64,000 nt of DNA from Nitrospirota bacterium (GTDB lineage Bacteria > Nitrospirota > Thermodesulfovibrionia > Thermodesulfovibrionales > Dissulfurispiraceae), in NCBI GenBank assembly GCA_963710375.1, contig CAVPZX010000002.1:800001-864000 (forward strand). The letters are read 5' to 3'. This document shows, piece after piece, positions 40,342 through 58,461 of this stretch. The position numbers were made by a program, and so were the translations under genes. Each line of letters begins with the position of its first letter. The first letter of the stretch is position 1. The notes under the pieces are model-generated. The model saw only the letters and a list, made by a program, of their open reading frames with translations, made no database searches and was not told where the DNA came from.

Positions 40342-40417
40342 TCCCGGGTAGCTCAGCTGGCAGAGCAGGTGGCTGTTAACCACCCTGTCGGGGGTTCGAA
40401 TCCCTCCCCGGGAGCCA
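40342..40417 (+). tRNA. tRNA-Asn (GTT)
   Basis: Acceptor TCCCGGG/CCCGGGA, anticodon arm GGTGG-CTGTTAA-CCACC, GGTTCGAATCC, encoded CCA; TTGACA (40301) and TATAAA (40325) promoter boxes. Confidence 0.97.
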
Positions 40418-40450
40418 GCCGTTACTCTCAGCAAAACCATTTGCTGTTTG

Positions 40451-40522
40451 TGTCGCGGAACCATAGTTTGAGACGAAATCTCATACTATGGTTCTTTTGC
40501 ACTCTGTCTCAAACTATGGTTC
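40451..40522 (+). repeat. Tn7-like transposon end with three 17-bp TnsB-binding-type repeats
   Basis: TGTCGCG followed by GAACCATAGTTTGAGAC (40458-40474); inverted copies at 40478-40494 (2 mismatches) and 40506-40522 (exact). Confidence 0.8.
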
Positions 40523-41054
40523 GGATTATTTTAAATAATAATCTGTATGGCCGTTATCTGGCTGTATACGCCCACCATTGTAGGCGATATCTGAAAGTGA
40601 CCTAATAATTATACGGCCCAAGCCCACTCTAAATTAGTCGCATGTTCCGATTCGCCCCGAAACATGCACAGTGAAGTTCTTCCTCGACACCAGCTGCAAT
40701 TTCCTGAACCTCTCTTTTCCCCTTTGAACTGCGCAAAATTGCGAGGACTCAGTCGGCGGGCAGTACTCCCTACAATCGTTATTTCGTAAGATAGCAGTTT
40801 TTATAAAGCTTTCAACCCGCAATTAATAAAACACTGCCCTTTTTTGTGAAGAATACCCTGTGCTGCACGTAAAAATCGAAACGAGGCTCCGCAGCCCCGG
40901 AACAGCCGATATCCGTTTCAGACGTACATCCATCGGTGTACTGTTGTATGGCGGTAATATTCACTGGAATGTGTTCACTGAAACTTGTATGAGAAAGTGG
41001 TATCTGCTAATATTTGAATCAATAACACATTAAATTTTAAAGGAGACCTTATGT

Positions 41055-41582
41055 ATGCGTGCAAATAAGAGTAGCTTGATCAAAGCGGTTTTGGCCTGTC
41101 TGCTTCTCTTATCATTTGTATCTGTTGTCCATGCCGCTGGAAGTAAGCGATTCACTCTAAAAGGTGGCGTTATTTATGACTCATCAACCGGGCTCCAATG
41201 GGCACCCGCCCCTAACGACGCAGGATATGTCATGCCGAACCAAAGGAAGGCCGCGAATAAAAGCCTGATGAGGAAAATGAATTATCATCAGGCAGATGAA
41301 TATGCCCGGAATTTAAACCTTGCCGGAGGCGGATGGCGTCTGCCGACAATAGAGGAACTAAAGAGCTTGTATGACACAACCAAACCCGGTAATGTGGATC
41401 CTGTTTTTAATATTATTAAAAATTGGGCATGGACATCAGAGTCGCGTGGTACTGGTACGATGGACGCGTGGGCCTTCTGTTTCGACGGTAGCGGATGCGG
41501 TGGCGACGGTACCGGCGGTCATGGCGTCAACATTTACCGCGCCGGCATCTTTCCAGTTCTGGCAGTGCGGTCCCGAAAGTGA
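41055..41582 (+). CDS. Secreted DUF1566 (Lcl C-terminal) domain protein
   Basis: Signal peptide; D..TGLQW, GWRLPTIEELKSL, WAWTS, VLAVR. Confidence 0.8.
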   Translation: MRANKSSLIKAVLACLLLLSFVSVVHAAGSKRFTLKGGVIYDSSTGLQWAPAPNDAGYVMPNQRKAANKSLMRKMNYHQADEYARNLNLAGGGWRLPTIEELKSLYDTTKPGNVDPVFNIIKNWAWTSESRGTGTMDAWAFCFDGSGCGGDGTGGHGVNIYRAGIFPVLAVRSRK

Positions 41583-41814
41583 TGTGGATCATTTGATCCT
41601 TTGATAAAGACCTGTTTTCACGCAAAGGCCCAAAGGGTGCAAAGAAAGGCAAGGCGAACCACATAGGCACGAATACAGAGAGAAAAACAATAAATAATTT
41701 CTCACAATGCAGCAAAAACCTGGAAAAAATTGAAACCACGGTAACGGCGATTTTTGTTTGGAGCAACCATAAAAAAGGAGAAAGGTTCTGGAAAATAGAT
41801 ACATAGGATATAAC

Positions 41815-42468
41815 GTGAATGATTTGGACATACAAATTGAGGTGACAGATTCAGATAACCCATCCCCGAAACCTCCAGTTCAACCTTCTGATGATGTCAA
41901 GGCACTCATACGAACAAAATTCCGGGATATTGCCCTTATGGCTCTACCCTTAATTGGGTTACCCAATCCCGCATTTAAGAATTATAAACTGCGGTTTGAA
42001 ATAGAGAGTACAATAAATCCTGGCAATGATCGAGGTCCTTTTACATTTGTGCCTGTTGATACAACTGTAGTAATTCTTCTCCCCGATTACAAATGTATAA
42101 ACTATAGCGAGGAGTCCTGGGATTTCAAGAATACTCTTCATCAGCTTGCTCATGAATGTGTGCACGCCTTTGGCCCGCCTCTTCGCATACCGTTGACTAT
42201 TTTAGAAGAAGGCATGGCTGCTTATTTTTCAGATTATTATGCTCAGAGTCTCTCGATTAATTTAAGACAGCATCCTTGTAGCAATCATGAAAAAGCAAAG
42301 TATGCTGTTCGGGATCTATTGGACATGAAAGCTACAGTAATTACAGAACTACGTATTAACAATCCCCAGCTGCGCATTTCACAAATAACTGAAGATATGC
42401 TGCGTAACGCTTGCCCAAGCATAACAGATTCTTTAGCTCAACTCTTGGCAAGTGAATTTAAAAAGTAA
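41815..42468 (+). CDS. Hypothetical HExxH metallopeptidase-like protein
   Basis: HQLAHECVH followed by LEEGMA.YFS. Confidence 0.6.
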   Translation: MNDLDIQIEVTDSDNPSPKPPVQPSDDVKALIRTKFRDIALMALPLIGLPNPAFKNYKLRFEIESTINPGNDRGPFTFVPVDTTVVILLPDYKCINYSEESWDFKNTLHQLAHECVHAFGPPLRIPLTILEEGMAAYFSDYYAQSLSINLRQHPCSNHEKAKYAVRDLLDMKATVITELRINNPQLRISQITEDMLRNACPSITDSLAQLLASEFKK

Positions 42469-42739
42469 AGAACAGTGTTCGATCTTATTTACATTTAAAG
42501 AGAAAGAATAGCTATATGCAACATCTGCTCATATATTATACTATTGTGTCGTAAAGCAATTAGTCCGGCCTACTTACATAAATTGCTGAAACTGGCATCA
42601 AATTTGTTCTTCACCGTGCTATGCGTAAAATCACGCAAGGACCGAGACTGAAGATTCACAGTAAAAACAAATGTATGATGCGGAACTGAGCGGCTCCCGA
42701 CGAGGAGTCTGTTCGAAATACGTCCGCTGGATTAGCGGG

Positions 42740-44176
42740 TTAGATCGGTTTCTCGATTGAGTTTTGTAGTTTTTTGATTGGGAAACCGATTGAGTAGTAA
42801 TCAATGTAATCATCACTCCCGTTGGTTATGCAAAGTAAAACCCTATGACATAATACCTTAAGTAGTTTTACTTCTTTTATTAAATCGATATAGTCCTGTT
42901 CTTTTGTCATTGAACCATGAGCAGCTCGATTTCTTTGTTTCCAAGCGAGAGATTCAATATTACTAAGCTGAAGATTCAATGCACCCAGAAATTCTTCCGT
43001 TAGTACACTCTGGGGTTTTTGATTAAGCGAAGCTATCTTGTTGTTTATTATTTTAAGAAGATCCCCGTTTATACTTTTACTTCTAACAACTTCCAATATA
43101 TCCTTTTGTAAAGATTCCCACGCTGTTTTCTCAAGCACTGAAGTTTTGAATAAAGAGCCATTTGCTGCGACAAATGCGTTTTGTATAGCTTCAAATGTTG
43201 CTCCAAAATGAACTGCTGCGATATGGATAGGAGCAGAAACAGAATGCCAATAAAGCCAGCCTACATGACCAAGATTGTAGTCATCATATTTTTTATAGAA
43301 GGCATTTACCATTCGAGAGAATTTTTCTCTGTTTAGTTCGTTCCCGAATTTCTCATACAAGGGAGACGGAGGTAGAGTAAGCAATTTGAAGGCCTTTCCA
43401 TCAATGGTATAAGCACTTATTGATTTAAAGGAAACTAATTGCCATTTACTGTTGAAAATGGAATGCCCCAGATGAATAAATGGACGGCCAAAAGCAAATG
43501 ATAAAGCCAATCTGATCTTTGACCTTATTTCCTCAGAAGGAGTTCCATTATAAATAACAAACCCTGGCATTTTTTCGTCGCTGACAGCAACCTTATTGCA
43601 AACACCAAAATATAATTCCTGGCCATCAACGCTAATGTTTACACATTTCCAAGAGAAAGAACTTGTTTTTTCAGATGACGTAAGCAGCAACGAACTTCCG
43701 TTTTTGCAAAAAATTCTATTTGATAATACTTCAACTTCTTCATCCAGTGAATCCGGCCAAATATAATAGCTGTCATCTACATTTACTAACCATTCGATTA
43801 GATATTGACCCTCAGACAGATTTGTCACTATGCACTCAAGATTTTGTATTGATGCCTTTTCATGTCGGTAACATGTACCTGTTTCATTCATAGACCTTGA
43901 GTTGGTCAACGGCTGAACGCCATATGCAATTGCCTTTATACCAGATTTATTTTCAAATTCAATTGAGTCGATGTTTGATCGAACCGTTCCTGGTGGATAG
44001 TTAACGGAACAAGTTGTCGTATCATGGTTAGACACAGTGTCAATAAAGATATTTAAATCTTCATCCCTTTTTATCGTGAATTTATTGACCGGCGAATATA
44101 GAGACCCGGCCTTTGTTAATGAAAAAAGACCTTCATTTAAAAAGCTATCAAATATCTCCCATTTCCAAACAACCAT
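42740..44176 (-). CDS. ApeA/HEPN-like protein (putative anti-phage)
   Basis: 478 aa, AT-rich; LSFAFGR, C-terminal RNRAAHG (Rx4H HEPN motif). Confidence 0.6.
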   Translation of the reverse strand: MVVWKWEIFDSFLNEGLFSLTKAGSLYSPVNKFTIKRDEDLNIFIDTVSNHDTTTCSVNYPPGTVRSNIDSIEFENKSGIKAIAYGVQPLTNSRSMNETGTCYRHEKASIQNLECIVTNLSEGQYLIEWLVNVDDSYYIWPDSLDEEVEVLSNRIFCKNGSSLLLTSSEKTSSFSWKCVNISVDGQELYFGVCNKVAVSDEKMPGFVIYNGTPSEEIRSKIRLALSFAFGRPFIHLGHSIFNSKWQLVSFKSISAYTIDGKAFKLLTLPPSPLYEKFGNELNREKFSRMVNAFYKKYDDYNLGHVGWLYWHSVSAPIHIAAVHFGATFEAIQNAFVAANGSLFKTSVLEKTAWESLQKDILEVVRSKSINGDLLKIINNKIASLNQKPQSVLTEEFLGALNLQLSNIESLAWKQRNRAAHGSMTKEQDYIDLIKEVKLLKVLCHRVLLCITNGSDDYIDYYSIGFPIKKLQNSIEKPI

Positions 44177-44529
44177 CTTATGTTTCCCTATAATCTAACG
44201 CTGCGCTGAGCGGCCCCGGAAGTGGAGTGCGTTCCCGTGCATAGTTCACCCTCTGCAGTGAGGAGACGGAACACGTAATTATATAGTTTCTGCTCATCTC
44301 CGCAAATTCTATCATAGCCACTCAGAATTTTAACAGATTTTGATAAGCCAATAGCTCCCAAGCCTAACCCCGCCGATATTATGAACATCGGCAAATAAAT
44401 ATATCTGCTCAGGCCAAAATTGGGAGTTCTGCGGTGACATCTTCAGGTGATAGAGGAACTCATTATCTCCCAATCTCGAAATCCTTCTGGACTTTTTTGC
44501 CCTATTCTCCTAAACTCTGAATATGCTGT

Positions 44530-44865
44530 TTGCAGATGACAGTATACCCTACCGCAACTATAACGGAGAACTGGAGGGTGCACTTCTTGGCGTCAGACAT
44601 TATGGCCTCATACGCAGGCATTGCGCTGGGCATGTCGATTCTTTATGTATTTATTAAATGGGTGAAGCTCCGCCATATTTATTTCACCATGCTTTACCTG
44701 GCCGGCACTGCACTTTCTTCCGTTGGCGGCCTTTTCCTTGCATGGCCGTTGACCCATCATATAATTCTCCCGATGCTCATCGCCGCCCTCTGCTGGAGCG
44801 GACTTTGCTTGCGTCTTTTTGTACAACATAAGTCGCAAACAGCCACGCTTTCGCTTCGGGGTTGA
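44530..44865 (+). CDS. Small membrane protein (possibly a fragment)
   Basis: Three hydrophobic segments; weak start. Confidence 0.3.
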   Translation: MQMTVYPTATITENWRVHFLASDIMASYAGIALGMSILYVFIKWVKLRHIYFTMLYLAGTALSSVGGLFLAWPLTHHIILPMLIAALCWSGLCLRLFVQHKSQTATLSLRG

Positions 44866-44958
44866 GCTCCAACTCGCTAACGACGCCGAATGTTATCGGC
44901 TCTTCGTATTTGTAATATCTTGCCAAGCATTCATAAACGAACTCTGTCCCGTCTGACC

Positions 44959-45429
44959 TTACAAAGGCCGCACCTTCCCAGCCGACGCCATTGACACGAG
45001 TTCGCCAGCTTCCCGAAGCAATTCCGTATCTCCAAGTTTCCGGCGCAGTAGCGCGATTTTCATAAGCACCTGCTCAGGATGAGTTGCAGACGCATATTCT
45101 GCTGTCTGCGTCAGTAGATCAATTTTGCCTCGGAGATCTTTGTCCGATTTAATACTCTCCAAGATGTAATCATTTGCCCGGCTGAGAAATCTCAGTGCCC
45201 TGAGTTTCCGCTCTTGGCGTTCCGATAATTTGCCTGGATCGCTGTGAAGCGTCCACTTGCAGCCTGTCTGTTTCTCCAGTTTCTCGATTCGCTTTTTTGC
45301 TATTTTTTCTGCTGTGTCGGATCGAAAAGTTTTGATCCTCATCAAGCGGATTGGCCTATTGCTGACCGTTCTTGGATCGACATTGTTTGCTATGCCTAAA
45401 AACTTATATGTCTTTTCTTTCCTGGTCAT
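44959..45429 (-). CDS. Hypothetical basic protein, last gene of the tns-strand run
   Basis: SD GGAGG upstream; co-oriented with tniQ. Confidence 0.55.
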   Translation of the reverse strand: MTRKEKTYKFLGIANNVDPRTVSNRPIRLMRIKTFRSDTAEKIAKKRIEKLEKQTGCKWTLHSDPGKLSERQERKLRALRFLSRANDYILESIKSDKDLRGKIDLLTQTAEYASATHPEQVLMKIALLRRKLGDTELLREAGELVSMASAGKVRPL

Positions 45430-45458
45430 TTATTTCCACCCTCCATTGTTCATCACCG

Positions 45459-45701
45459 TTAGAGTTCCTCCTTCGCTACCTTATAGGCCTTTTTAATCAT
45501 GGTCCGTGTTATCATTTCATTAGGCTCAATGCCCTGCACATCAAATATCTCATCACCTACAACCTGTATCTTTGTGATATCCTCGCCTATCCTTTTACAA
45601 CCGGCTTTGTGCAAAGCATTCAGGAACTTCTTTTTCGTCGGTTCATCCAACTTATTGTAAAGCCACTCAAAATACCGGAAGTCCTCTTTTTTGATGTACA
45701 T
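45459..45701 (-). CDS. Hypothetical 80-aa protein
   Basis: SD AAGGGGG upstream; operon-like spacing. Confidence 0.55.
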   Translation of the reverse strand: MYIKKEDFRYFEWLYNKLDEPTKKKFLNALHKAGCKRIGEDITKIQVVGDEIFDVQGIEPNEMITRTMIKKAYKVAKEEL

Positions 45702-45734
45702 AATTTCCCCCTTGTTTGTGGTTCCGTAGGACAG

Positions 45735-46295
45735 TTATAAAGATGCCCCATCTCTGATAGCGGCAAGGATAACATCAACATCTTTAGCCCCCTCATCAGT
45801 CTTAAGCATCTCCAGCGGGCTCTTCCCCTGAAAGGAAAAGTGGGGAGCCAAAAGCCACTTGCGGGCATTCTCCGCACCGCCCAGAACCTCGACAGCAAGA
45901 GCGTATGTCTCCGTCAAGCGGTATGGTCTTATGGCAAAACATTCATCACACAGCGTCCTGAGCCATTCATGAAATTTACCCTCGTTGAGCGTCCTTCTCT
46001 GTCCGGGCTTTCCGCAATCCTCACATGTTACAGACGCTCTTTCGGCAGCGGTGGCGATTAGTTCAGCAATAGCGTTATTTTCGCCAGCCACATAAACCAT
46101 CAAGTCGCCAAACTTTTCCTTGACCTGCTCTACTTTGAATCTGGTAAGCGCGGAACTCTTTACAACTTCATCAATCTTTACAAATAAATCCTCAAGGATA
46201 GGCAGCCAGCCGTCACCGCACGAAAAGCCGATTGGCCTGAGAAAATCATACTTATTCTGTAGATTATGCCTGCGTTTTTCTTGTATTTCACCCAT
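45735..46295 (-). CDS. Phage-type Zn-finger protein (GW...QVKEKFG...CxxCG) fused to an Xre/MbcA/ParS C-terminal (DUF2384)-like domain
   Basis: CGDGW, QVKEKFGDL, CEDCGKPG, TLCDEC; C-terminal AVEVLGGAENARKWLLAP...GKSPLEML.TDEG...V..IL.AI..G. Confidence 0.65.
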   Translation of the reverse strand: MGEIQEKRRHNLQNKYDFLRPIGFSCGDGWLPILEDLFVKIDEVVKSSALTRFKVEQVKEKFGDLMVYVAGENNAIAELIATAAERASVTCEDCGKPGQRRTLNEGKFHEWLRTLCDECFAIRPYRLTETYALAVEVLGGAENARKWLLAPHFSFQGKSPLEMLKTDEGAKDVDVILAAIRDGASL

Positions 46296-46316
46296 TCCGT
46301 TCTCCTTTGGTTAATC

Positions 46317-47712
46317 TTATTTCTGGTTATCAATCCCTACTAACCTTGACCTCTTAATTACTTCCCTGCAGATTCTACTGCACGCGATCCGCTCATCTTC
46401 TTTATTACCAACTATCCCTATGCCTTTGATATCGAAAGCAACCAGTCTTTGTGTTGGCCTTATCCCCTGCTGCATCAGCATCACCGCACTCTGATGATAT
46501 AAGTCGCACTTATCCGCAAATCTCCGCATTTTCCCAGAGTGTCTATGTGCCTGGAAGCGCTGGTTCATTCTCTTGGCGATATCCCCGAACCTATTGAAAA
46601 GAGTACGACGGTTAACCCCGAGTTTCTCTGCTGCCGTGGCTACGCTGATCGGCGGGTTTTCATTAGACAGCATTTCCAGTTGACGCTTAATCAATTCTCT
46701 GTCGAGTTTCTGAGTCTTCCTTGTGCGGGTTGATATTTGGGCTACGGTATGCGTGGCAATGATCTCTGTCCCCTCAAATGTGGTGTTCGTACCCAACATG
46801 ACATCAGCTATGGAAGATCGACATGCGAACGACATTTCAACCATCTGTGGGAAACTCGGGATGAATTTACCATTCATCCATCCATGTAACGTATTTTTCT
46901 TAATCCCCAACAGTTTTCCCAAAAGTGCCGCATTACCTCCGGTAAAATGCTGCGCGGCACTTTTAAGGAACTCAGAAATTCCTACTATGCCCCTATGACT
47001 TTTAGGCTTTAGTCTTTCTATATCACCTAACATAACGACGATAAGCTGCGCTCTTTTTACTTCATCCTCTGAGGCGCTTTCTATCAATTCTTCATAATTT
47101 TCTGTCAAGGAGTATCCGCACGAGCCACAAAACCCCGACAGGTGTTTAACATGCCGTGTAGACAGAGGCGATGACCCGTTACACCTGCATTGGCTTACCA
47201 ACTTAATCCCGTGTTTTGGGCATGCTTCGATAGCAGCTATCTCCCATAAAAGCTGTCCGTAGGCTCGCCCTTCTTGAGCCGCCTCAGAAAGACATATGGG
47301 GCACCATTTCTTTGTACTACTCATAAGCCGCTGCACGTTCATATATGGCCTCAAAGGAACAAGCGTTAAATCAATGAGACCTTGCTGCCCTGTAAGTTCA
47401 CTCAGGATATTCGCCCACGTTTCAGGAACAGAAGCTGATACCATTAAATAGCGGGAGTTTCCAGATCGTGAAAGCATCGTCGCTTTGGCGTGCATTACCG
47501 TCTTTTATCCTTGGGATTATTAGCTCCCTTGCCAAAGTCTTCGGAGAAACATGGTGGAGATGGGCGAGCCCCAGGTAGTAGCTGCTAAGACTTTCCCTGT
47601 ATGGTGTACCTAAACCCATTGGCCTTAGCGATGCCAACAGCGACCTTGGAGGGATCCGGGCATCCGGATCAACTCCCACCAACGGATAATCGTCCACACA
47701 TTCCACGTTCAT
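46317..47712 (-). CDS. tniQ: TniQ/TnsD target selector with C-terminal HTH domains, split by one extra base at about 47432
   Basis: GTPYRESLSSY N-terminus, WCPICL, LLW...CPKH...C.C...CGSCG zinc motifs; corrected junction FNGISSVPETWANILSELTG; about 464 aa; ATG overlaps the tnsC stop. Confidence 0.88.
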
Positions 47713-48749
47713 CAGGCCGCCTTCTTATCTGTAGTTGGTTTGAAATTAAACTTCCCGGTTCCGTAAACAGCCTTTGCTATATCCACCTCGCCCTTCAATG
47801 TCTCTTCAAGGATGGCCACAATCTGTCCTTCAGTGAGAAGAGCCTTGGAAAGACAGGCATCGGTCCATTTGCCCCCATTTCTCAGAGCGAATGTCAGTGC
47901 CCTTTGAAGGGTTTCTTTCAAAGTTCCCACGCATCCGATGCAGGAATCCATCAACTCGTTGGACATTTCTGTCAGGTCTGGTACTCCACTTAGGGGCAAG
48001 TATTTCTGCAATTTATCGACGCTTTTCTTGAAAACCTTTTCATCCTCGGCGTTTCCCCGGCAATACCTCTGGAAGTGGACAATAGCGGTCCGTCGTGCAA
48101 CCTGACCGCTTAAGCACATCAGCTGATAAAGATCGTAGGAACCGATCAGCGCCAGAGTTAGTGTAACTCCATCAAGTAGAGTTAAAGACTTTAAGGCATC
48201 CATATGTGCGGCTAACACAGCGCCTTTAGCGTTCCTGATCAAGTGAACCGCTTCGTCGATAATTAGCAGGATTGTGTGTCGATATCTCAACGCGTCTTCA
48301 ACAGCCATTCTAAGTCCAGCCACTGTGCTCCCTGTCGTAACATGACTAACCGACATACGGCCATCCTGTAGCCTGAATTCCTGTTTCTTGTCTATAAGCG
48401 GTTCAATAAGGGCGGTCCCGATTTTGATATAAAAAATACGCCATGAGAATTTATTCTCACCGGAAGACGGTGCGGTGATCATGACTACTGGAATAAAACT
48501 CAGATCTTTCGCCATTTGCGCCTGATGCAATTTAACTATACGCTCCATAAGCGATACGCTCAACGTTGACTTGCCCGCTCCAGTCGGGCCGACCAGAAGC
48601 GCAATATCTGTCCCGGACCCCGGCAAGACCATTGTCTCAAGGTCATCTAGAATAGTGCCTACCCTTGGATGTTTCACCCGCACCTGATGGAAGTAGGCAA
48701 GCTTTTCGTCGTCCGAGAGCAACATTGCCTGTTCGGGCGTCATAGTCAT
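47712..48749 (-). CDS. tnsC: TnsC/TniB AAA+ transposition regulator
   Basis: VKHPR, GPTGAGKS Walker A, LIIDEA Walker B, LIGSYDL, QVARR, GCVGTLK. Confidence 0.9.
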   Translation of the reverse strand: MTMTPEQAMLLSDDEKLAYFHQVRVKHPRVGTILDDLETMVLPGSGTDIALLVGPTGAGKSTLSVSLMERIVKLHQAQMAKDLSFIPVVMITAPSSGENKFSWRIFYIKIGTALIEPLIDKKQEFRLQDGRMSVSHVTTGSTVAGLRMAVEDALRYRHTILLIIDEAVHLIRNAKGAVLAAHMDALKSLTLLDGVTLTLALIGSYDLYQLMCLSGQVARRTAIVHFQRYCRGNAEDEKVFKKSVDKLQKYLPLSGVPDLTEMSNELMDSCIGCVGTLKETLQRALTFALRNGGKWTDACLSKALLTEGQIVAILEETLKGEVDIAKAVYGTGKFNFKPTTDKKAA

Positions 48750-48759
48750 TGGATTGATC

Positions 48760-51519
48760 TCAGAATAGTTCGTATTCTTCCTCCTCAATAGTAGCCATGG
48801 ATTCATTGATCGATGGCGATAAAGTATCTATCGGTAAAACCGAAGGCGGAATCATGGGGGCACTTGTCGAATCAATCTGAGTCTGAGGAGATGTCATTCC
48901 CAGTCTCTCGTATACAAACCGTGCCTCACTCTGCTGTTCCTTCAGACGGGGGTCGAAATTCCTTGCATCCAGAACCTTCATCCATTCTGCTATCCGTTCA
49001 GGAGACAAGTCTTTTTTCTTAATATTATTTTCTTTCGCCAATTCTTCAAAGGCATAGCGCAGTTCTATAACGGTATATTGGCGAAGCCGCCACTTCAATT
49101 TCGACTCGCATTGATGCCATTGACCATTGACCAGCGCATATATATATCGGACATCCCAGGGATCGATGCGGATATCGATGGGCTTTTTATGCAGGTTGAC
49201 GCCCCTGAAGGCATTGGTCCAATACCAAATATGGTTGATCTTGACGCCGCGCTGACCATCGACTATGCGTGTTCCACCAGCTTCAGGAGCCGGGCATGTT
49301 TCAATCAGGAACCTGCGGTCGTATCTGACAATACGATGGAGGCGCATGCCGGTCTCGGCCATTCGTGATACGAAATGCTTCACAGGTTCTTCGCCATGCG
49401 CCGAATGATTTTCAGTTCCATAGAGATTATCGAAATAATAATCAAGAGCGCCATGCAGTGCCGGCAGCGTCCATTCAACAAAGTTTTTCGGATTCACGGA
49501 TTTAGTGACCGTGCGAACATACTTCATGAGTTGGGTATTTCCGCTCAGATTATGGATAAGCTGCGATTGAGTCGTCCCGAATAGACGCTCCATTACAGAG
49601 CCGTGGCGCGGCTGGCCTGCCGGACGATACCTGATGCTGCACCCATAAAGTCTGCAAACACGTTTGAACTCACGAGACTTGAATTCCTTGCCATTATCGA
49701 CGACGAGCATATCCGGCATGCGGCCATGTCTACGGACAATATCGCGCAGAACCATCATGCAGGACCTATAACTCGGCGGCTCAAAGGACAGATAAAAGCC
49801 AACCACTCTGCGAGATTCGGCGTCAATTGCTAAAGAAAGCCATGCATGCCACGTTGACTTCAATACATTGGGCGAGCAGAGCAGTATGTCCAGAGGTGTA
49901 TGATCGATATGCACATACTGAAATGGCCTGACACCATGTATGGGCTCGTTGAGCTTCAGATACCAGACGATGGGTTGTGTCTGGTAAAAGACTCGTTTGC
50001 CTCTGCGCTTGCGAACAGACGTAAGTTTATCAACCTCTTTGTTGAATGTTTTTGCCGAACAAGGCTCAAGACCTGCAGTCTGGCATGCATCCACTAACTT
50101 TTTGTACGCCATGCCTTTGTTAATATTGGTGGCATTATTGAAGTCTTCTCTAACAATTAGAGCTATCAGATCGATTAGTTCCTTCGGGATTTTCCGCTCC
50201 CGGTTTCCGCTTTTTATAAGTTGGGGAACAAGTGCCAGATGCTGGTCAATGACACTGTCACCCGCGTCTCTCACTGCTTTCTTGTACCTGTGCAACGTGC
50301 TTCTCGACACTGTTACCAGCTCCGGCGCGAAATTTGAAAATTCGAGCTGTCGCGCCCTTGCGAGCGCTTTATCCATATATTCCGGCGATACGCAAGCTAT
50401 TGATTCATCATCACTCGAATCAGGATGCACAGACGATCTGACGTTAAGCTTTCCGGCGGCATACTGTTTTTCCAATACTTCCAGCGAAATCTCAGTGGTA
50501 CCGTCATCTGCCGAGAGCATCACGGAATTCTGACCGACAAGAGCAATCCTGTAGGTTTTGCCATCATAATCGACTTCAGTCCCAACTTCAAACGATACGT
50601 CAAGGCGGCATTCCTCATTAATAACTCCGGAATGTTCAATCCGCTGATAAAAGGCAAGCATGGTTTGATCGCGATAAACACGCGCCCTATACGTTTCGGC
50701 GATATCATCATTCATAAGGTCGAAAGCTATGTGCCCGTCGGCAATTGCTTTGTAAATATCGTCAGCCGTAACTACAAAACCGCCAGCACCAGTAATTGGG
50801 TCTTCTATTGCATCACCAGGAATCCCGTAGTTACATTCAGCCGTTTGTAATAGGTCCATAATGGTAAGCACGGCCTTTTCGGTGAGAATGCTCTGTAGAA
50901 TATTAATTTTCTGCTGTTCTACAGGCGGGCAGTCCTGAGAGAAGTAGTCCGACAGGAATTCAAGGTTCCTAACAAACTGATGTGGATGCTCATTCGCTGA
51001 CCGGAGGCGGTAGGTTATTCCCATCTCGGCAAGATGTTCCTCTGCCAAAGGGAAATGCCATCCGTCATCTCCCTTAATGTATCTGCCAGGATAATCCTTA
51101 GCGAGCTTTTCGAGCCGTTTTTCCTGCCGCCATTCCTCTATGAGTATCTGGTCAGCCATAATAATAAGGAAATCCGGAAAATGTTGTACCCGTGACGATT
51201 GCTTCCTCCCGTCAGCAGTTATAAGGTCAAGTTCGCAGGGTTGAGGGTAGTACTCAATTACCAAAGGATTATGCTCGTATTGAATCGCTGCCGGGAATTC
51301 GCCAGTTCTGCTTTCCGTACCAACAGCTCGGCCCATTTTCCGGCTTGAGTACCAAGTAATCACATTGCCGGAATTCGATTGGATATCCCTGACTGGCGCT
51401 TCTCTCCTAGCCTTCTCCACTAATCGACGCCCGGCCAATGGAGTACCCAGTCGATCAAATAAAGCATTCAATTCTATGGAGTTCATTATCATTCTCTTTC
51501 CCTCAAGCTTCGGTGGCAT
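48760..51519 (-). CDS. Fused TnsA endonuclease-TnsB DDE transposase
   Basis: N-terminal TnsA (YSSRKMG...ES..E...EYYPQP...PDFL...EEWR); C-terminal DDE (HIDHT, VDNGKEF, ERLFGT) and Mu-transposase C-terminal (IRIDPWD). Confidence 0.9.
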   Translation of the reverse strand: MPPKLEGKRMIMNSIELNALFDRLGTPLAGRRLVEKARREAPVRDIQSNSGNVITWYSSRKMGRAVGTESRTGEFPAAIQYEHNPLVIEYYPQPCELDLITADGRKQSSRVQHFPDFLIIMADQILIEEWRQEKRLEKLAKDYPGRYIKGDDGWHFPLAEEHLAEMGITYRLRSANEHPHQFVRNLEFLSDYFSQDCPPVEQQKINILQSILTEKAVLTIMDLLQTAECNYGIPGDAIEDPITGAGGFVVTADDIYKAIADGHIAFDLMNDDIAETYRARVYRDQTMLAFYQRIEHSGVINEECRLDVSFEVGTEVDYDGKTYRIALVGQNSVMLSADDGTTEISLEVLEKQYAAGKLNVRSSVHPDSSDDESIACVSPEYMDKALARARQLEFSNFAPELVTVSRSTLHRYKKAVRDAGDSVIDQHLALVPQLIKSGNRERKIPKELIDLIALIVREDFNNATNINKGMAYKKLVDACQTAGLEPCSAKTFNKEVDKLTSVRKRRGKRVFYQTQPIVWYLKLNEPIHGVRPFQYVHIDHTPLDILLCSPNVLKSTWHAWLSLAIDAESRRVVGFYLSFEPPSYRSCMMVLRDIVRRHGRMPDMLVVDNGKEFKSREFKRVCRLYGCSIRYRPAGQPRHGSVMERLFGTTQSQLIHNLSGNTQLMKYVRTVTKSVNPKNFVEWTLPALHGALDYYFDNLYGTENHSAHGEEPVKHFVSRMAETGMRLHRIVRYDRRFLIETCPAPEAGGTRIVDGQRGVKINHIWYWTNAFRGVNLHKKPIDIRIDPWDVRYIYALVNGQWHQCESKLKWRLRQYTVIELRYAFEELAKENNIKKKDLSPERIAEWMKVLDARNFDPRLKEQQSEARFVYERLGMTSPQTQIDSTSAPMIPPSVLPIDTLSPSINESMATIEEEEYELF

Positions 51520-51527
51520 GTTGTTTA

Positions 51528-51650
51528 GTTAGGTTTATCTAACTGTACTTACAAAGTTAAAAACCTTATTTAACAGAATCATATCATCGTTAGAAATATC
51601 TAACACAATTATTTACTTGACTGTCAAGAGTAAAGTAAGATATTATTTAC
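51528..51650. promoter_or_regulatory. Divergent promoter/operator region with 16-bp palindromes
   Basis: GTTAGGTTTATCTAAC (51528-51543), GTTAGAAATATCTAAC (51589-51604), weaker GTAAGATATTATTTAC (51635-51650); back-to-back TTGACT (+, 51617) and TTGACA (-, 51627). Confidence 0.65.
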
Positions 51651-51652
51651 AT

Positions 51653-52276
51653 ATGACAGTCGGTGCCTATATGAAGAATAAGAGGATGCATCTCGGGATG
51701 TCCTTGCGAGAGGCGGCCAAATCGGCAGGTATATCACATGTGCATGTTAAAGATATAGAGGCTGATAAAATAAAGCCGAGCTTTGAAAAGGTTGTGAATC
51801 TTCTCCGGGCCTATAGTGCCGACATTCAGGAGTTCTTAGAACAAATAGGGTATTTACCTCAAAATGTTGAGTCAGCGTCTATTGGAAAATTGAATTCTGT
51901 ACCGATTATCTCGTTGGTGACTGCTGGTAGTTGGAATGAGGCCTGCGAGGTATTTGAACCGGGCGAAGCGGATGAATGGGTATCTTCAGATTATAAGGGA
52001 CAAAACATTTTTGCAGTAAGAGTCAAAGGCGATTCCATGGAGCCAGAGTTTACCGAGGGGGACATTATTATTTTGGACCCTCATATGAAGCCCAATCCTG
52101 GTGATTATGTGATTGTAAGAAACGATGAAGGTGAAGCAACGCTCAAGCAGTTTAAACAGTATGGGCAAACCAAAGTGTTGCATCCTCTGAATCCAAAGTA
52201 TGACGATATCGAATTAAAGCATGGCCATCAGTATGTGATTGTTGGGAGGGTTGTGGAGAAGAAAAAGAAGTATTGA
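51653..52276 (+). CDS. LexA/CI-type repressor (XRE HTH + S24 peptidase)
   Basis: HTH MSLREAAKSAGISH, Ala-Gly cleavage site (VTAG), catalytic Ser GDSMEP and Lys ATLKQ. Confidence 0.9.
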   Translation: MTVGAYMKNKRMHLGMSLREAAKSAGISHVHVKDIEADKIKPSFEKVVNLLRAYSADIQEFLEQIGYLPQNVESASIGKLNSVPIISLVTAGSWNEACEVFEPGEADEWVSSDYKGQNIFAVRVKGDSMEPEFTEGDIIILDPHMKPNPGDYVIVRNDEGEATLKQFKQYGQTKVLHPLNPKYDDIELKHGHQYVIVGRVVEKKKKY

Positions 52277-52375
52277 ATTAGGAGGGTAATATTTCATATA
52301 AGAATCGAATAAATTATGACACGAATAAATTATACACTTGACAAACTATACCGATAAATTTATAGGATTACAATT

Positions 52376-53359
52376 ATGGCAGTCAATAGAGACAAAACAG
52401 ATTTGTGGAAGGCCGATATCGCCCGTTCAGTTGATATGTATAACAACTGGTTTGTGAACTTCGCGCCCGAAGCTTACCGAAACACCCGAATTGAAACCAC
52501 CAAAGACGTAGAGCAAACCCTTAGGACAACGGAAAATCTAACCAACATTACAACAACGATCCTTAAAGCAAATCCGTCTATATTGCCAACGTTACGTATG
52601 TCCACTTGTCCCCCTTTGGCAGTCGACAGACTTATTGGGTTGGCATGTGTTTCAAAAAATCTTGTTCAAGTTATGGAAGAAGGAAAACTGCCACCACGTA
52701 TGTTTACGCGTGAATTGGACCAGCAACTTCAACAGATTAGCGAGATAATTGCAAAAATGGCTGACCCCGATATTTTTGTTTGGTTAGGTCGAAAACAGAA
52801 GCCTTCTGAACAAGAGGTCTATCGCGCCGCGACAATTGTTGCAGATCGGCTTTGCGGTTCAGTGGCAAATCCCATCATTCGTAATGCTCAAGAAAAACGG
52901 CAATTAGCAACTATTGCAGATTGGCTCGATGCCCGAGACTATGAGCAAGTCCCCACTCGCGACGGGACAAAATTCGACGCCATGCGACCGGCGACTTACA
53001 CTTTCCGGCTAAATGTCCCCGTAAAACAGAAAGAGATACATAAAGAAAAACCGGGGGAAAAAACAAAAAGCATCAATATCCCTGTTGATGCAGTTGTCAT
53101 GCCTAAGAAGGCAAAGACTGGCGACTTCCCCTTGTTGATCGAAGCGAAATCGGCGGGAGATTTTACCAATGTGAACAAACGCCGCAAGGAAGAGGCAACT
53201 AAAATCGCTCAACTTCGTTATACTCACGGAGATCGCGTTTCTTTTATCCTCTTCCTCTGTGGCTACTTTGACAGCGGTTACTTGGGCTATGAAGCCGCTG
53301 AAGGCATCGATTGGGTTTGGGAACACCGTATTGATGATCTTGCTATGTTTGGGTTGTAA
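52376..53359 (+). CDS. Type II restriction endonuclease, XamI family
   Basis: W..DI..SVD.YN.WF, PPLAVDRLIGL, NPIIRNAQEKRQL, IEAKSAGDFTNVNKRRKEEA. Confidence 0.82.
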   Translation: MAVNRDKTDLWKADIARSVDMYNNWFVNFAPEAYRNTRIETTKDVEQTLRTTENLTNITTTILKANPSILPTLRMSTCPPLAVDRLIGLACVSKNLVQVMEEGKLPPRMFTRELDQQLQQISEIIAKMADPDIFVWLGRKQKPSEQEVYRAATIVADRLCGSVANPIIRNAQEKRQLATIADWLDARDYEQVPTRDGTKFDAMRPATYTFRLNVPVKQKEIHKEKPGEKTKSINIPVDAVVMPKKAKTGDFPLLIEAKSAGDFTNVNKRRKEEATKIAQLRYTHGDRVSFILFLCGYFDSGYLGYEAAEGIDWVWEHRIDDLAMFGL

Positions 53360-54889
53360 ATGAAAGCAATCGACCATCTTTCCCAAAAGGAAAAAACAAG
53401 GCTTAGACTCCAGGTTTCGCTTGACGCCGCAAAAACACAGGAAGAACGCAACCGCCTAGGACAATTTTCCACACCCACCCCTCTTGCTTTGGACATGTTG
53501 ACCTATGCAAAAAAGCTCATGCCCATTATACGGAAAGTCCATTTTCTTGACCCTGCTCTTGGAACCGGCGCTTTCTATTCCGCTTTATTGAGGACATTTC
53601 CTGCAAGTCGTATTGCCACCGCTACGGGCTACGAGGTCGATCCTTATTATGGTGATGCATCTCGTTCCCTTTGGTCCGACATGGGGATTGATCTTCGGTT
53701 GATGGATTTTACAAGCGCTATTCCACCTAAAAAAGGCTTCAATTTGGTAATTTGCAACCCGCCGTATGTTCGGCACCATCACATTTTGAATGGTGAGAAA
53801 GCGAGGATTCAGGCAGCTACCTATAAGGCTTGCGACATTCAGTTAAGTGGCTTATCTGGCCTTTACTGCCACTTTCTGGGACTGTCTCATAACTGGATGG
53901 CTGAAGGGGGACTTGCCGGATGGTTGATCCCAAGCGAGTTTATGGATGTGAACTACGGCAAGGCGGTGAAGCAATACCTTCTCGATAAGGTTAGGTTATT
54001 GCATATCCACAGATTCGATCCCCATGATGTGCAATTTAATGACGCTCTTGTGTCCTCTGCCGTTGTCTGGTTCAAGAAAGAGACGCCGCCGCAGGATTAT
54101 AAAGTTGAGTTTTCTTTTGGCGGGACACTGTCCGCGCCCAAAATATCTCGCAATATTTCCACTCAGGTATTAAGGACTGAATCAAAGTGGACGCGCTTTC
54201 CCCTTGCAAAAGCACGCACCAAGGAGAAATTACCAACGCTTTCGGACTTTTTTTCAATCCATCGCGGTATAGCCACAGGTAACAATAATTATTTTATCCT
54301 CACGGCTGAGCAGATTGCCGCCTGCAGGCTCCCTCAAGAGGTTTTCAAGCCAATCCTGCCAAGCCCAAGGTATTTACCTGAAATGGAGATTCAGTCCGAT
54401 GAAATGGGGAACCCAATCCTAGAGAAACCCTTATATCTTTTGGACTGCCGCCTTCCTGAAAAGGTGGTCAAGAAACGTTACCCGAGCTTGTGGCTCTATC
54501 TCTCGGAAGGCAAGAAACGAGGTGTTGCCAGCCGATACTTGTGCAGTCATCGTTCTCCGTGGTATTCGCAGGAAAACAGACCGGCGGCTCCTTTCGTCTG
54601 CACTTACCTTGGTCGTGGGAATGTGAAAAGCGGTCGTCCCTTCCGTTTTATCCTTAACCTGTCCAACGCAACCATAACCAACGTCTATTTGGCCCTGTAT
54701 CCCAAGGGACCCTTGGCCGAGGCCATTGCGAGTGATCCGTCTTTTGCGCGGCACGTTTGGGAAAGCCTGAACCGCATATGCCCAAAAACAATGCTGTCTG
54801 AAGGACGCGTTTATGGCGGAGGTCTCTACAAGCTTGAACCGAAAGAGCTGGCGAATGTTCCGGCAACTGATCTTGCTGATCTGCTATAA
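53360..54889 (+). CDS. N6-adenine DNA methyltransferase (gamma class), partner of the REase
   Basis: GQFSTP, FLDPALGTG, NPPYVRHH, GRVYGGGLYKLEPKEL. Confidence 0.9.
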   Translation: MKAIDHLSQKEKTRLRLQVSLDAAKTQEERNRLGQFSTPTPLALDMLTYAKKLMPIIRKVHFLDPALGTGAFYSALLRTFPASRIATATGYEVDPYYGDASRSLWSDMGIDLRLMDFTSAIPPKKGFNLVICNPPYVRHHHILNGEKARIQAATYKACDIQLSGLSGLYCHFLGLSHNWMAEGGLAGWLIPSEFMDVNYGKAVKQYLLDKVRLLHIHRFDPHDVQFNDALVSSAVVWFKKETPPQDYKVEFSFGGTLSAPKISRNISTQVLRTESKWTRFPLAKARTKEKLPTLSDFFSIHRGIATGNNNYFILTAEQIAACRLPQEVFKPILPSPRYLPEMEIQSDEMGNPILEKPLYLLDCRLPEKVVKKRYPSLWLYLSEGKKRGVASRYLCSHRSPWYSQENRPAAPFVCTYLGRGNVKSGRPFRFILNLSNATITNVYLALYPKGPLAEAIASDPSFARHVWESLNRICPKTMLSEGRVYGGGLYKLEPKELANVPATDLADLL

Positions 54890-55156
54890 TCGGCAATTCC
54901 TCCCGAGAGAGCGAAAAACATATACTAAACCGGGATAGTTATTTGTAGGGGGAACACTTGTCGAGTTCCAATAGTAATAATCTTCCCGGAAAAATAAAGA
55001 TGAAGTTACTGGAAACATGCAATTATTGAGGGTTCAAAAGCGCAATATCGCCAATGACTATATTGATAATATTAGATTAATTAATTGAATATAGCTTAAA
55101 CTGATAAGGGAATACACTTTGCGGTTCAATGAAACGAAGAGCGCAAAAGTGATTAG

Positions 55157-55945
55157 TTAGACATGCATCTTGCCCAAATCAAGTTCTTCGGCTATACGTT
55201 TCTTTTTAAGGTCAATCATACGCTTGACAAATTTATCAAAATCTTCCTGTGGATAGTTAGGATTTGGCTCAGAGAATAAACTCGTTAGGGTGGATAAAGC
55301 CCCAATGCCAAAACCCTTCTGACGGTATTGCGAAATTTCCGAAAAAAGCGCGCGCAACTGTTCAAGATGCGACTTCAGATCAATTTCTTTTTGCGTAGAA
55401 TAACCTGTCTCAACACGAGCATTTATAATTTTCTGAAGTTCATCATGATTTGCCTCTTCAGTGATTCCTTCACGACGTATATAGATTGCATTTGCTCTGA
55501 TACTCGATCCACCTTTTAAAGTCACGAACGGTAAGTGGTCAAGGCTATATCCTATAAAAAGAACCTGAAATTTCTTGCCGACAAGCTTTGGATACTCAGA
55601 TGCATCAAATGAGAAATCGACAGTATCCAGCAGGTCCATTAATGGATTAGGCAGATAATGCTTGATGCCATTGGTAATGTCTGCCTTGTCTTTCAGAACG
55701 GTCAGCCCTATTGGATCCAGTGTATTATCATCTTTTTCATCAACACCTATAACCAAACAGCCACCTCCAGAGTTTGCCATCCCAAGAATATGTTTTGAAA
55801 TGGCTGATTGTTCGGGCCATTCTGACTTAAAGTCACAAAAACGCAACTCTCCGATATTAGTCTTGATCAGTTCTCTAAAGCCTTCCCGCGTTGGATCTTC
55901 AAAGAATGTGGCAAAAGACTCGTGAAAAGATTTTGTTTTCCCCAT
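55157..55945 (-). CDS. Schlafen/AlbA_2 domain protein
   Basis: E...DFK, MANSGGG.LVIGVDE, IYIRR; start at MGKTK behind a GGAAGGGG SD. Confidence 0.8.
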   Translation of the reverse strand: MGKTKSFHESFATFFEDPTREGFRELIKTNIGELRFCDFKSEWPEQSAISKHILGMANSGGGCLVIGVDEKDDNTLDPIGLTVLKDKADITNGIKHYLPNPLMDLLDTVDFSFDASEYPKLVGKKFQVLFIGYSLDHLPFVTLKGGSSIRANAIYIRREGITEEANHDELQKIINARVETGYSTQKEIDLKSHLEQLRALFSEISQYRQKGFGIGALSTLTSLFSEPNPNYPQEDFDKFVKRMIDLKKKRIAEELDLGKMHV

Positions 55946-56047
55946 GCCTGTTTTCCCCTTCCATTGTTTTACATTATCGTTTATGTTTATTCTGTCCTGC
56001 AATACGCACAGTTTTTTGCAGAGTTAGGCATCATCCGGCGTGCCTTT

Positions 56048-56473
56048 TCAGTCACTACGCTCGAAGTACACCTTTCCAGTGATCTCCCGGTTCGGGTCGT
56101 GACTACTCAGGTTAGGGTCATAGAACACCCATTCTTCGTCACGATTCAAGATGCATTCCCATACGAACAGACCAAAAATCAAGCCGGCCTGATCCTGCAC
56201 ATCCTGTTCCTCGGCGGCCTCGCCCAGAATCTCTCTGGCGACATCGTACAAATGAGCAAGAGGATACGGCCACGGTGTCAGCTCTGAGCCCAGGAAGGAA
56301 CTGCTGAAGGAACGGTTACCTGTCTGAGTGTCAGGTGCCATCTCGTCAATTATGCGGTTCAAATCGGCGCGAACTGCCGCGAGCCGTTCAGGGCCAAGGC
56401 TCCGCTGGACTGCCACAAAGTCCGCCAGGTGTGGTACCCGATTAATGCTCTTTCCATCGATTGTGCTCAGCAT
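56048..56473 (-). CDS. Hypothetical protein
   Basis: ORF with AAGGA SD before MLSTIDG; SSFLG..W, AGLIFGLFVW. Confidence 0.55.
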   Translation of the reverse strand: MLSTIDGKSINRVPHLADFVAVQRSLGPERLAAVRADLNRIIDEMAPDTQTGNRSFSSSFLGSELTPWPYPLAHLYDVAREILGEAAEEQDVQDQAGLIFGLFVWECILNRDEEWVFYDPNLSSHDPNREITGKVYFERSD

Positions 56474-56551
56474 AGGTTTGTCCTTAATTGTACCACCATC
56501 AGCTTCTGGTATCCATAGCAACTGATAGCCATGCGCCTTGTCCTCAGTGGG

Positions 56552-57223
56552 TTAAACCCCAAGTATGCGATTGATATCTGACATAGGTGTTTGCTTCCTG
56601 TGAAATATCCAGTTTTGTATAGTTACATTAATGGCATAAATAAAGCCTCCTGCGGCACTAGCGGCCATATAAAGAAGTTCATCTGCTTCTTTGACAGATT
56701 TAATTCCAGATGAGGTCCCATGAACAAGCAACGATTGGAAGCCGTAATACATCGTATATATCCGTTCAAAGTTCGCGTTCTTAGCCATTTCTTCAATCCG
56801 CAGCCGCTTCGGAATCTCCTTCATTACGGATGACTGAATAAAGTCAGATGTTTTATCCTCCTGATTTTTCTTATTGAGGATTTTGGCATATCCGCTCAGC
56901 AAATTCTTTCTTGCAAGTCTCTTCATCTCGTTTATGCCGGCATTATTGAACATCTGAACATTCTCATCAGACTGCATTAGCCATCGGGTCACAACGAGAG
57001 TTTCAAACAGACTTCTCTCTAAAATATTGGCCGATTCTATCAGACTCGTCTCAGCAGCCAGGACAAAACCATCTGTTATATCGGCAGCTCTTCTTAGACA
57101 ACAAATAAGCGCGTGTTCTGCTTCACCATTAAAATGCCGCTTGCTAAAATCATTAGCATTTTGCCGTGCGATCTGCGCTTCCTTGCGAAGGTTCTCAATT
57201 ACTTCTTTGAGTCTATGCTTCAT
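56552..57223 (-). CDS. DUF5677-like helical protein
   Basis: A.ILERSLFE...W, IEEMAK, Y...S.LVHG pattern. Confidence 0.6.
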   Translation of the reverse strand: MKHRLKEVIENLRKEAQIARQNANDFSKRHFNGEAEHALICCLRRAADITDGFVLAAETSLIESANILERSLFETLVVTRWLMQSDENVQMFNNAGINEMKRLARKNLLSGYAKILNKKNQEDKTSDFIQSSVMKEIPKRLRIEEMAKNANFERIYTMYYGFQSLLVHGTSSGIKSVKEADELLYMAASAAGGFIYAINVTIQNWIFHRKQTPMSDINRILGV

Positions 57224-57281
57224 GTCGTTCCTATTATATAGATTTCAACTGATGTGGCGAGGGCAACTACAAAAGAATAAG

Positions 57282-58061: not shown

Positions 58062-58091
58062 AAAAAAGTTACTTCCCTTAGTGCTGATTGT

Positions 58092-58226
58092 TCAGCTTTT
58101 GGTATTCATAGCATCCCCAAATAACCTCAACAGTGGTGACGCCGAAAAGATTTCTTCTGACTCTTCCTCAAGAGCCTGGAAACACTGGTCACACAATTTA
58201 CTCAGATCCTCTTCCTTGAACACCAT
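58092..58226 (-). CDS. 44-aa CxxC mini-protein, paralogue of the divergent neighbour
   Basis: MVFKEEDLSKLCDQCFQALEEESEEIFSASPLLRLFGDAMNTKS aligns with the C-terminal half of 58462-58722. Confidence 0.55.
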   Translation of the reverse strand: MVFKEEDLSKLCDQCFQALEEESEEIFSASPLLRLFGDAMNTKS

Positions 58227-58461
58227 CGTGCTAGATATGATAGTGTAAACAAAACAAAAACATATTGTAAATAAATCCATATTTATGCAGGCAGGTAGGC
58301 AAATATTGGGAGCAGTGTAAACTATAGTATGTGTAACTTACCGCCGAACTGGCGGGGATATGCTATGTACTATCACTGTGGCGGCAGAGACTCACTCCTC
58401 AGTGCCTTCTTTGCTCCCTTATCAGGGAATATAGGATGCCGGTTTATGCTACACTACCGCT

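Follow-up and report, generated by a model that had tools for sequence, protein, structure and literature searches.

The tRNA-Asn locus and the boundaries of the element

The stretch of DNA analysed here, referred to as the window, comprises 64,000 nucleotides of the Nitrospirota genome G000 (3.19 Mb in 9 contigs, 98.8% complete) and corresponds to G000:C2:800001-864000. It contains a tRNA-Asn gene, behind which lies a Tn7-like transposon encoding a TnsAB fusion protein, the ATPase TnsC and a single TniQ-family protein, TnsD. The transposon extends beyond the window; positions above 64000 are window-equivalent, that is, C2 coordinates minus 800000. The following features make up its ends, its transposition genes and its regulatory region (HTH, helix-turn-helix):

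40342..40417, plus strand: tRNA-Asn(GTT), the attachment gene, intact (ARAGORN)
40444..40448, plus strand: left copy of the 5-bp duplication CTGTT
40449..40522, plus strand: left end, TGT terminus and three predicted TnsB sites, with the layout of cyanobacterial TnsAB ends
40449..64000: part of the element inside the window, continuing beyond it
46317..47712, minus strand: tnsD, 464 aa, TniQ core and C-terminal HTH domains, split by an extra base at 47432
47712..48806, minus strand: tnsC AAA+ ATPase, Walker A GPTGAGKS, Walker B LIIDE
48760..51519, minus strand: tnsAB fusion, 919 aa (910 from the second Met), Pfam TnsA-N, rve and Mu-C
51520..51652: divergent intergenic region, predicted operator/promoter, conserved in four elements
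51653..52276, plus strand: XRE-HTH and S24 peptidase (LexA/cI-like) repressor, 207 aa from the likely start
G000:C2:870434-870566: right end, four sites of the same orientation and ACA terminus
G000:C2:870567-870571: right copy of the duplication CTGTT
G000:C2:870571-870643: orphan left end of an older element

The whole element comprises 30,118 bp and spans positions 40449 to 70566, its right part lying past the window edge. It is bounded by TGT (40449) and ACA (70566), and CTGTT is duplicated on either flank. The left terminus at 40449, which reads TGTGTCGCGG, is located 31 bp from the CCA of the tRNA and 34 from its discriminator base. Three 17-bp sites are found in this tRNA-proximal end at 40458(+), 40478(-) and 40506(-), and the right end possesses four at 70434, 70465, 70519 and 70542, all in one common orientation. 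Two findings support the ends independently: the duplication matches in 5/5 bases, for which the chance is about 1 in 1,000, and a branch point of short-read contigs falls precisely on base 70566, supporting the right terminus. A matrix scan of the 3.19 Mb at a score of at least 16 yielded 14 matches, 10 of which lie within end clusters while 4 are scattered; this test is partly circular, since the matrix consists of the sites of the present element and three sites of a sister element, L002.

A sequence-only reading of the window had described a TGT terminus with 17-bp sites 33 bp from the CCA, a duplication GTTTG and a boundary at 52276. Terminus and sites are indeed present; however, the distance had to be corrected to 31 bp, as the terminus lies at 40449 and not at 40451. 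The combination of 40451 with GTTTG was rejected, because no partner copy of that sequence exists, whereas 40449 and CTGTT pair up and CTGTT matches both flanks. The element also does not stop at 52276 but continues to 70566, and the other end that this reading had expected past 64,000 was found with sites, ACA and duplication at 70434-70571. The ARAGORN call at 40342-40417 agrees with its statement that the tRNA-Asn gene beside the element is intact.

Transposition proteins

The genes tnsAB, tnsC and tniQ are all encoded on the minus strand and transcribed toward the tRNA. In the TnsB part of the fusion, the catalytic DDE triad is intact (D539, D608, E644), while the TnsA part contains E69, D116 and E129-x-R131, with an arginine in place of the usual lysine. 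TnsC matches the Pfam families AAA_22/TniB and has both Walker motifs, and the zinc ligands C137/C140/C164/H167 are present in the TniQ core of TnsD. The domains TnsA-N, rve, Mu-C and AAA_22/TniB thus bear out the earlier assignment of a 919-aa TnsA-TnsB fusion with TnsC. The single TniQ of about 464 aa likewise stands, as the element has one tniQ and an intact 464-aa protein is present in the public collection (P0002, P0035). The nearest homologs of TnsAB, which are 74% and 68% identical, are found in Nitrospirota.

A profile of TnsD built from 33 sequences (461 positions) gave as best solved match the TnsD of PDB 8v32/9bw1, with an E value of 2.5e-75 over profile positions 18-433 of 461. The same chain ranked first by fold (E 1.6e-17, TM score 0.56) when an AlphaFold model with a mean confidence (pLDDT) of 76.8 was used, and TnsAB matched 9bw1 best and over its full length (E 3e-141). 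From entry titles and abstract, both entries are taken to be the TnsABCD-att complex of a Peltigera cyanobiont. Since TnsD and TnsAB match this homing module of a type I-B2 CRISPR-associated transposon (CAST) over nearly their full length, the HTH regions of TnsD, which had been described as extra XRE-like and TetR-like additions, are ordinary for this type of TnsD. The XRE-like region is weakly supported (HTH_3, E 0.0075, below the cut-off), Foldseek matches to P22 c2/HppE have E values of about 1, and no match to the TetR family was seen for TnsD. At E values of at most 1e-30, the TnsD family comprises 1,846 clusters. Some of its members are considerably longer: P0079, P0081, P0085 and P0098 are TnsD homologs that measure 870-1,100 aa and contain 8-11 matched stretches each; in the two that were read, the TniQ core is followed by HTH repeats in long tandem arrays. 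Another protein, P0224 (633 aa), combines a TnsA-like N-terminus with AAA/TniB Pfam domains and is apparently a TnsA-TnsC deletion fusion; its contig is as long as the one carrying P0208 and P0013.

Left ends and TnsD proteins of relatives

A search for the 17-base left-end pattern in 390 genomes of the class revealed 27 matches in 23 genomes, compared with 9 for the reversed control pattern. Six of the 27 were discarded as chance matches, as they had one mismatch each and no further site. Fifteen of the 21 ends that were kept lie directly behind a tRNA gene or a 3' fragment thereof, namely tRNA-Asp (5), Asn (3), His (3), Phe (2), Ser (1) and Leu (1); the others are one tandem end in G000, one end at a contig edge and four ends without a tRNA. 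The tRNA-less ends (L077, L088, L100 and L125:18516) are well formed, and G432 has two of them approximately 1.4 kb apart; they were possibly displaced by later insertions or reached by a second targeting route. In all 19 junctions that were measured (the 15 mentioned above and those at His, Glu, transfer-messenger RNA (tmRNA) and a degenerate end at Asn), the end lies 29-34 nt beyond the discriminator base. Published spacings are 29±1 and 30-33 (PMC10293859; PMC9881144). The sequence between tRNA and end varies among genomes, which makes the tRNA gene the common feature.

Among the eight genomes of the genus with an assembled tRNA-Asn, including G000, three have a clear left end at this gene (G000 at +34, G001 at +32, G006 at +31) and one a degenerate end (G009 at +33). 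In other genera, 49 genomes had sufficient sequence past tRNA-Asn, and no end was found there in any of them; two further genomes had too little. As the offsets and the intervening sequences differ among genomes, several of these arrivals were independent. The comparison with empty loci that the sequence-only reading had proposed could be made: relatives with a free tRNA-Asn site lack the repeats, for instance G393, whose nearly identical 30-nt trailer without an end serves as an empty-site analogue.

TnsD is much rarer than the ends and was found in 9 of the 390 genomes. A TnsD that is 64% identical to the one described here belongs to L002, a complete sister element that measures 19,660 bp and is flanked by a duplication of its own at tRNA-Leu-CAG. 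Two TnsD proteins are encoded at tRNA-His (L069, 65% identical; G012, 60% over part of the protein on one contig), one at tRNA-Glu (L072, 38%) and one at tmRNA (G117, 29%), so that the expected association of TniQ homologs with tRNA genes was confirmed at Leu, His and Glu, in addition to tmRNA. Between the Asn and His proteins, no difference is seen in the helix of the first HTH; several positions vary in the HTHs that follow. Viral contigs contained no relatives of TnsD.

Tandem insertion and a second right flank

The attachment gene is the sole tRNA-Asn among the 45 tRNA genes that ARAGORN detects in G000. Both insertions of this genome are located there and none at the other 44 tRNA genes or the tmRNA gene. 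The final base of the right duplication is also the first base of the second left end (70571-70643), whose site sequences differ from those of the present element. A right end of the older element was not found up to C2:975000, either by the matrix scan or by its expected duplication. On the simplest reading, the older element inserted at +33 from the discriminator base, and the present element was then placed into the first base of the older end at +34.

The locus was also traced in Logan short-read contigs of the runs X1 and X3, which belong to one study, and X5 from another; X1 may be the source sample, and the runs containing the element are soil metagenomes. In X1 and X3, the contigs have two continuations that part exactly after base 70566, the assembled flank and a second flank without the duplication, at depths of 11.6 and 4.4 in X1 and 4.5 each in X3, compared with 17.7 (X1) and 9.0 (X3) for the element. 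The main contig of X5 continues into the second flank. None of the three runs has a branch at the left junction. The second flank was not found in G000, nine genomes of the genus, the loci of relatives examined or viral contigs. It confirms the right terminus and gives a hint of recent activity; the best guess is a rearrangement in which only the right end took part.

A divergent LexA/cI-like repressor

The intergenic region upstream of tnsAB contains a palindrome (51616-51628) that doubles as predicted back-to-back -35 boxes. A gene for the XRE-S24 repressor also adjoins tnsAB in L002 and G466, and a distant element in G003 carries one next to its tns genes. The TnsAB protein of this distant element is only 32% identical to that of the present element, yet its repressor is 83% identical and the intergenic motif is shared; the palindrome and its flanks are conserved in four elements, that of G003 included. 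This pattern suggests that the regulatory module moves between lineages. The G003 element (L117:15327-19937) has the gene order repressor, tnsD, tnsAB, tnsC. A limited literature search revealed no evident case of an S24 repressor beside tnsAB.

Interpretation and alternative explanations

The locus is best read as an intact Tn7-like transposon with fused TnsAB, in which a single TnsD guides insertion approximately 31 bp past tRNA-Asn; we assign this reading a probability of roughly 85%. The element is complete and, judged by its sequence, probably active. By analogy with the family, TnsD would bind and bend the 3' half of the tRNA-Asn gene (T-arm/acceptor region) and would recruit or load TnsC, which relays to TnsAB; TnsAB would excise the element by cut-and-paste and insert it about 31 bp past the gene with its left end leading, thereby leaving the tRNA gene intact. 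From the anatomy of the locus, the divergent XRE-S24 gene product would repress the tns operon and release it upon DNA damage. Ends, homology and spacing support the sequence-only reading in its central proposal of a Cas-free, protein-guided, tRNA-homing member with fused TnsAB in a non-cyanobacterial host, and tRNA-Asn as attachment site is supported by the left end 31 bp past the gene and by the tandem ends there.

Several findings speak against this reading or parts of it. Four of the 21 kept ends have no tRNA within 1.5 kb, and the element of G052, whose TnsD is 47% identical, has no tRNA nearby. TnsD was not found in the assemblies of G001, G006 and G009, which carry ends at tRNA-Asn, and the sole TnsD paired with tRNA-Asn is that of the present element. 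TnsD proteins that are 60-65% identical occur at Leu and His, and their first-HTH helices are nearly identical. The arginine at the TnsA lysine position and the second right flank without the duplication also count against it, and insertion beside an existing left end runs counter to target immunity; stacked Tn7-like ends despite target immunity are, however, known for Tn6022 (PMC11014353).

Three alternatives concern the state of the element and the way in which it moves. It is very improbable that the element is a dead relic, inactivated by the frameshift through which the assembly has tniQ in two frames. The contigs of all three covering runs (X1, X3 and X5) lack the extra base at 47432; a further run, X7, consists of scattered short pieces that do not cover this position and was not used. 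P0035 corresponds to the first frame of the window for residues 1-93 and to the second frame for residues 94-464, and three intact 464-aa versions of TnsD are present in the same protein cluster. The neighbouring housekeeping gene clpB has a similar error, as the same contigs supply one base at 39057. The break in tniQ is thus an assembly error, and the repair of TniQ envisaged earlier is unnecessary, because the natural frame is intact. Even more improbable is that a CRISPR system supplied in trans the RNA guide that placed the element, although the fused-TnsAB family includes the I-B2 and I-D CASTs (PMC10293859; PMC9881144). Cascade, an array and the second small TniQ of these CASTs are absent from the element ORFs (open reading frames), and no Cas families were detected either in the 27 ORFs scanned inside the window (35521-63756) or in the other ORFs of the element, so that the reported lack of cas genes in the window also holds for the part beyond it. 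Cas1 was not found in the 98.8% complete genome, and a simple repeat scan of G000 revealed no CRISPR array. The only other TniQ in G000 belongs to a separate tnsA-B-C-Q element (C2:1,010,120-1,014,906) about 143 kb from the right end, and the spacing fits the TnsD pathway rather than the 75-bp spacing of guide-RNA insertion by I-D systems (PMC9881144). Unlikely, but to be taken more seriously, is that the lysine-to-arginine exchange has weakened TnsA and that the element moves by nicking and joining, either replicatively or one-ended. The second right flank would then be the product of an adjacent deletion, and the many orphan left ends would likewise be accounted for. R131 is shared by all five aligned clade members and 17/20 of the closest homologs, the right terminus is branched in three runs while the left junction is not, and cointegrates were reported for PmcCAST (PMC9881144). 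However, arginine is present in 46/109 homologs, and the acidic residues are kept (E in 109/109, D in 107/109), which suggests that the site is still under selection and weakens the idea of a dead TnsA. Moreover, the conserved core lacks a resolvase, the TnsAB protein of the related McCAST cuts and pastes (PMC9881144), and the second flank was not located in the genomes searched.

The remaining alternative concerns target choice. Within an intact TnsD-guided transposon, we lean towards a TnsD variant that prefers tRNA-Asn over other tRNAs, given that two of two insertions in G000 are at Asn and that the genus shows the same pattern. It is nevertheless possible, if less probable, that the TnsD of this clade is a generalist reading shared tRNA features such as the T-loop and the spacing, and that Asn is merely the landing place in this genus. 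Nearly identical left ends lie behind Asn, His, Asp, Phe, Ser and Leu genes, end subtypes do not follow tRNA identity, the T-loop motif is the only visibly shared feature across the targets, and the Asn protein shares its first recognition helix, residue for residue, with both His proteins. Against a generalist stand the two ends of G000 at Asn and the two ends of G012:C28 that both follow His, as well as the limitation of Asn use to one genus although the gene is nearly identical across the family; ends of this family were never seen at two different tRNAs of one genome, although the numbers are small and the kin are not independent. A new TnsD specificity, which the sequence-only reading had considered, is not established by a single Asn pairing next to 60-65% identical proteins at Leu and His.

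It is tempting, though doubtful, to join these observations: a Nitrospirota branch may switch sites rapidly, with 60-65% identical TnsD proteins reading different tRNAs (Asn, Leu and His; further ends lie at Asp, Phe and Ser) through a few changes in HTH2 and HTH3, while a damage-inducible LexA/cI-like switch is traded between distant Tn7 lineages and one-ended rearrangements of the right end continue in the soil population. If this is true, the clade would be a natural series for working out the TnsD recognition code; the Asn, Leu and His elements, whose TnsD proteins are closely related and whose ends hardly differ, would make the change of target testable by domain swaps. With the present element, a family whose homing complex is solved gains a further tRNA and a complete member that is probably active, and a compact three-gene integrator at a universal, harmless site could serve engineering.

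Cargo and surrounding DNA

The cargo, more than 20 kb in total, brings restriction-modification and other genes to an uncultured soil lineage and comprises the following features:

41055..46295: left-side cargo block, with an Lcl_C protein at 41055-41582, a 217-aa protein without assigned family and a 186-aa ORF with an Xre/MbcA/ParS C-terminal domain
42740-44176: 478-aa ORF, weak HEPN match below the cut-off
44959-45429: 156-aa cargo ORF without assigned family
52376..54889, plus strand: type II restriction-modification pair, XamI-family endonuclease and methyltransferase
55157..59506, minus strand: Schlafen AlbA_2, DUF5677, a weakly MauJ-like ORF and two ORFs without assigned family
59692..64000: part of a nested Tn3-family transposon inside the window, running on to G000:C2:866418 (66418)
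G000:C2:867341-870421, plus strand: UvrD-like helicase

The nested Tn3-family transposon is 6.7 kb long, is bounded by 38-bp inverted repeats that are identical and by a duplication of its own (TATAA), and encodes TnpA, a resolvase, an RHH-ParE pair, a beta-propeller IPTL-CTERM protein and an exosortase. The IPTL-CTERM protein contains six 42-aa repeats, and the unit can be described as a mobile surface-display cassette (cargo L001:2309-4329). A second Tn7-like element of G000 (G000:C2:1010120-1016611), with separate tnsA, tnsB and tnsC genes, a 290-aa tniQ and a 261-aa ORF, carries a 71% identical homolog of the 156-aa cargo ORF. The split of clpB at 39057 by a missing base is also an assembly error, and other split genes in G000 may be as well.

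Sequence common to relatives picks up again near C2:961,300, so that tRNA-Asn heads about 120 kb of variable DNA. An integrase island marked by a duplicated 3' fragment of tRNA-Asn was considered and rejected, as G000 contains no such fragment. The approximately 90 kb of variable DNA beyond the element (G000:C2:870571-961300) include nested insertion sequences and long gene clusters, with a split 5-hmdU kinase helical-domain ORF, a radical SAM/SPASM gene and a 1,917-aa ORF. Upstream of the tRNA, a 193-bp non-coding element with long inverted termini (window 40102-40294) resembles miniature inverted-repeat or repetitive extragenic palindromic elements; about 30 copies with 77-90% identity are present in G000 and many in genomes of the same genus. 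The tRNA-Asn trailer (40415-40447) is identical to the tRNA-Asp trailer (G000:C4:324307-324339) in 29 of 33 positions (88%), and similar trailers lie 3' of tRNA-Asp in G471 and of tRNA-Asn in G393 (L085; L179). A small hairpin lies in the trailer, which may represent one end of elements from a separate, integrase-type family.

Comparison with known systems

Tn7-like elements have been recorded in eight Nitrospirae species (PMC8649781), tRNA-homing elements with fused TnsAB are well established (PMC9881144; PMC10293859; PMC11837452; PMC11406308), and a review states that TnsAB elements acquire different tRNA sites repeatedly (PMC11406308). The closest characterized systems are the homing modules of PmcCAST (I-B2; 8v32, 9bw1; tRNA-Val) and McCAST/CyCAST (I-D; tRNA-Leu), which likewise consist of a fused TnsAB, TnsC and a TnsD of about 460 aa that is homologous over nearly its full length. 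They also generate a 5-bp duplication about 30 bp past an intact tRNA, with the left end proximal to the target (PMC10293859; PMC9881144). In contrast to PmcCAST and McCAST, the present element lacks Cascade, an array and a second TniQ, targets tRNA-Asn, has an arginine at the TnsA lysine position and carries a divergent LexA/cI-like repressor; its TnsAB is only about 33% identical to the cyanobacterial members. A further related group are the Cas-free TnsAB elements of cyanobacteria, which have the same ends, with one inward and two inverted sites on one side and four direct sites on the other, and the same core (PMC9881144), and which are equally rich in cargo. These elements, however, usually encode two TniQ proteins, and their named targets are Val, Ala and Leu (PMC11837452), whereas a single TniQ is present here. 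TnsAB elements that target CRISPR arrays insert in the array, have a TnsD without the last HTH and carry no cargo (PMC11837452); the present element differs in its tRNA target, its full TnsD C-terminus and its cargo.

The suggestion that the host range is novel was overstated. An archaeal clade V element has fused tnsAB, tnsC and one tniQ beside tRNA-Thr and is similar by its description in a preprint (bioRxiv 10.1101/2025.07.27.667033), and similar three-gene elements are located on Ralstonia and Caballeronia replicons beside tRNA-like genes. Of the phylogenies that had been proposed, that of TnsAB, a midpoint-rooted tree of 14 rows, two of them cyanobacterial, has the protein in a separate, well-supported clade (100/100) with the betaproteobacterial Ralstonia/Caballeronia pair as sister; the protein is homologous to cyanobacterial TnsAB but is not seen to nest within it. 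The TnsD tree did not resolve the branching order of the Asn, Leu and His proteins. In the literature searched, no paper was found that names tRNA-Asn as a Tn7-like site, although the target-labelling figure of PMC9881144 lay outside this search; its supplement contains no 'Asn', but the table there gives no targets. The fold match of TnsD to Tn7 TnsD is weak (E 0.01).

Prototype Tn7 has separate TnsA and TnsB proteins, encodes TnsE and inserts with its right end toward the target. Like the present element, it combines a selector with a TniQ core, a fixed offset (attTn7 at glmS) and a 5-bp duplication; the TnsAB fusion, the tRNA site and the lack of a TnsE family match among the element ORFs set the two apart. 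Taken together, the tRNA-Asn locus harbours a real and complete element of a known Tn7-like kind, which is mostly ordinary.

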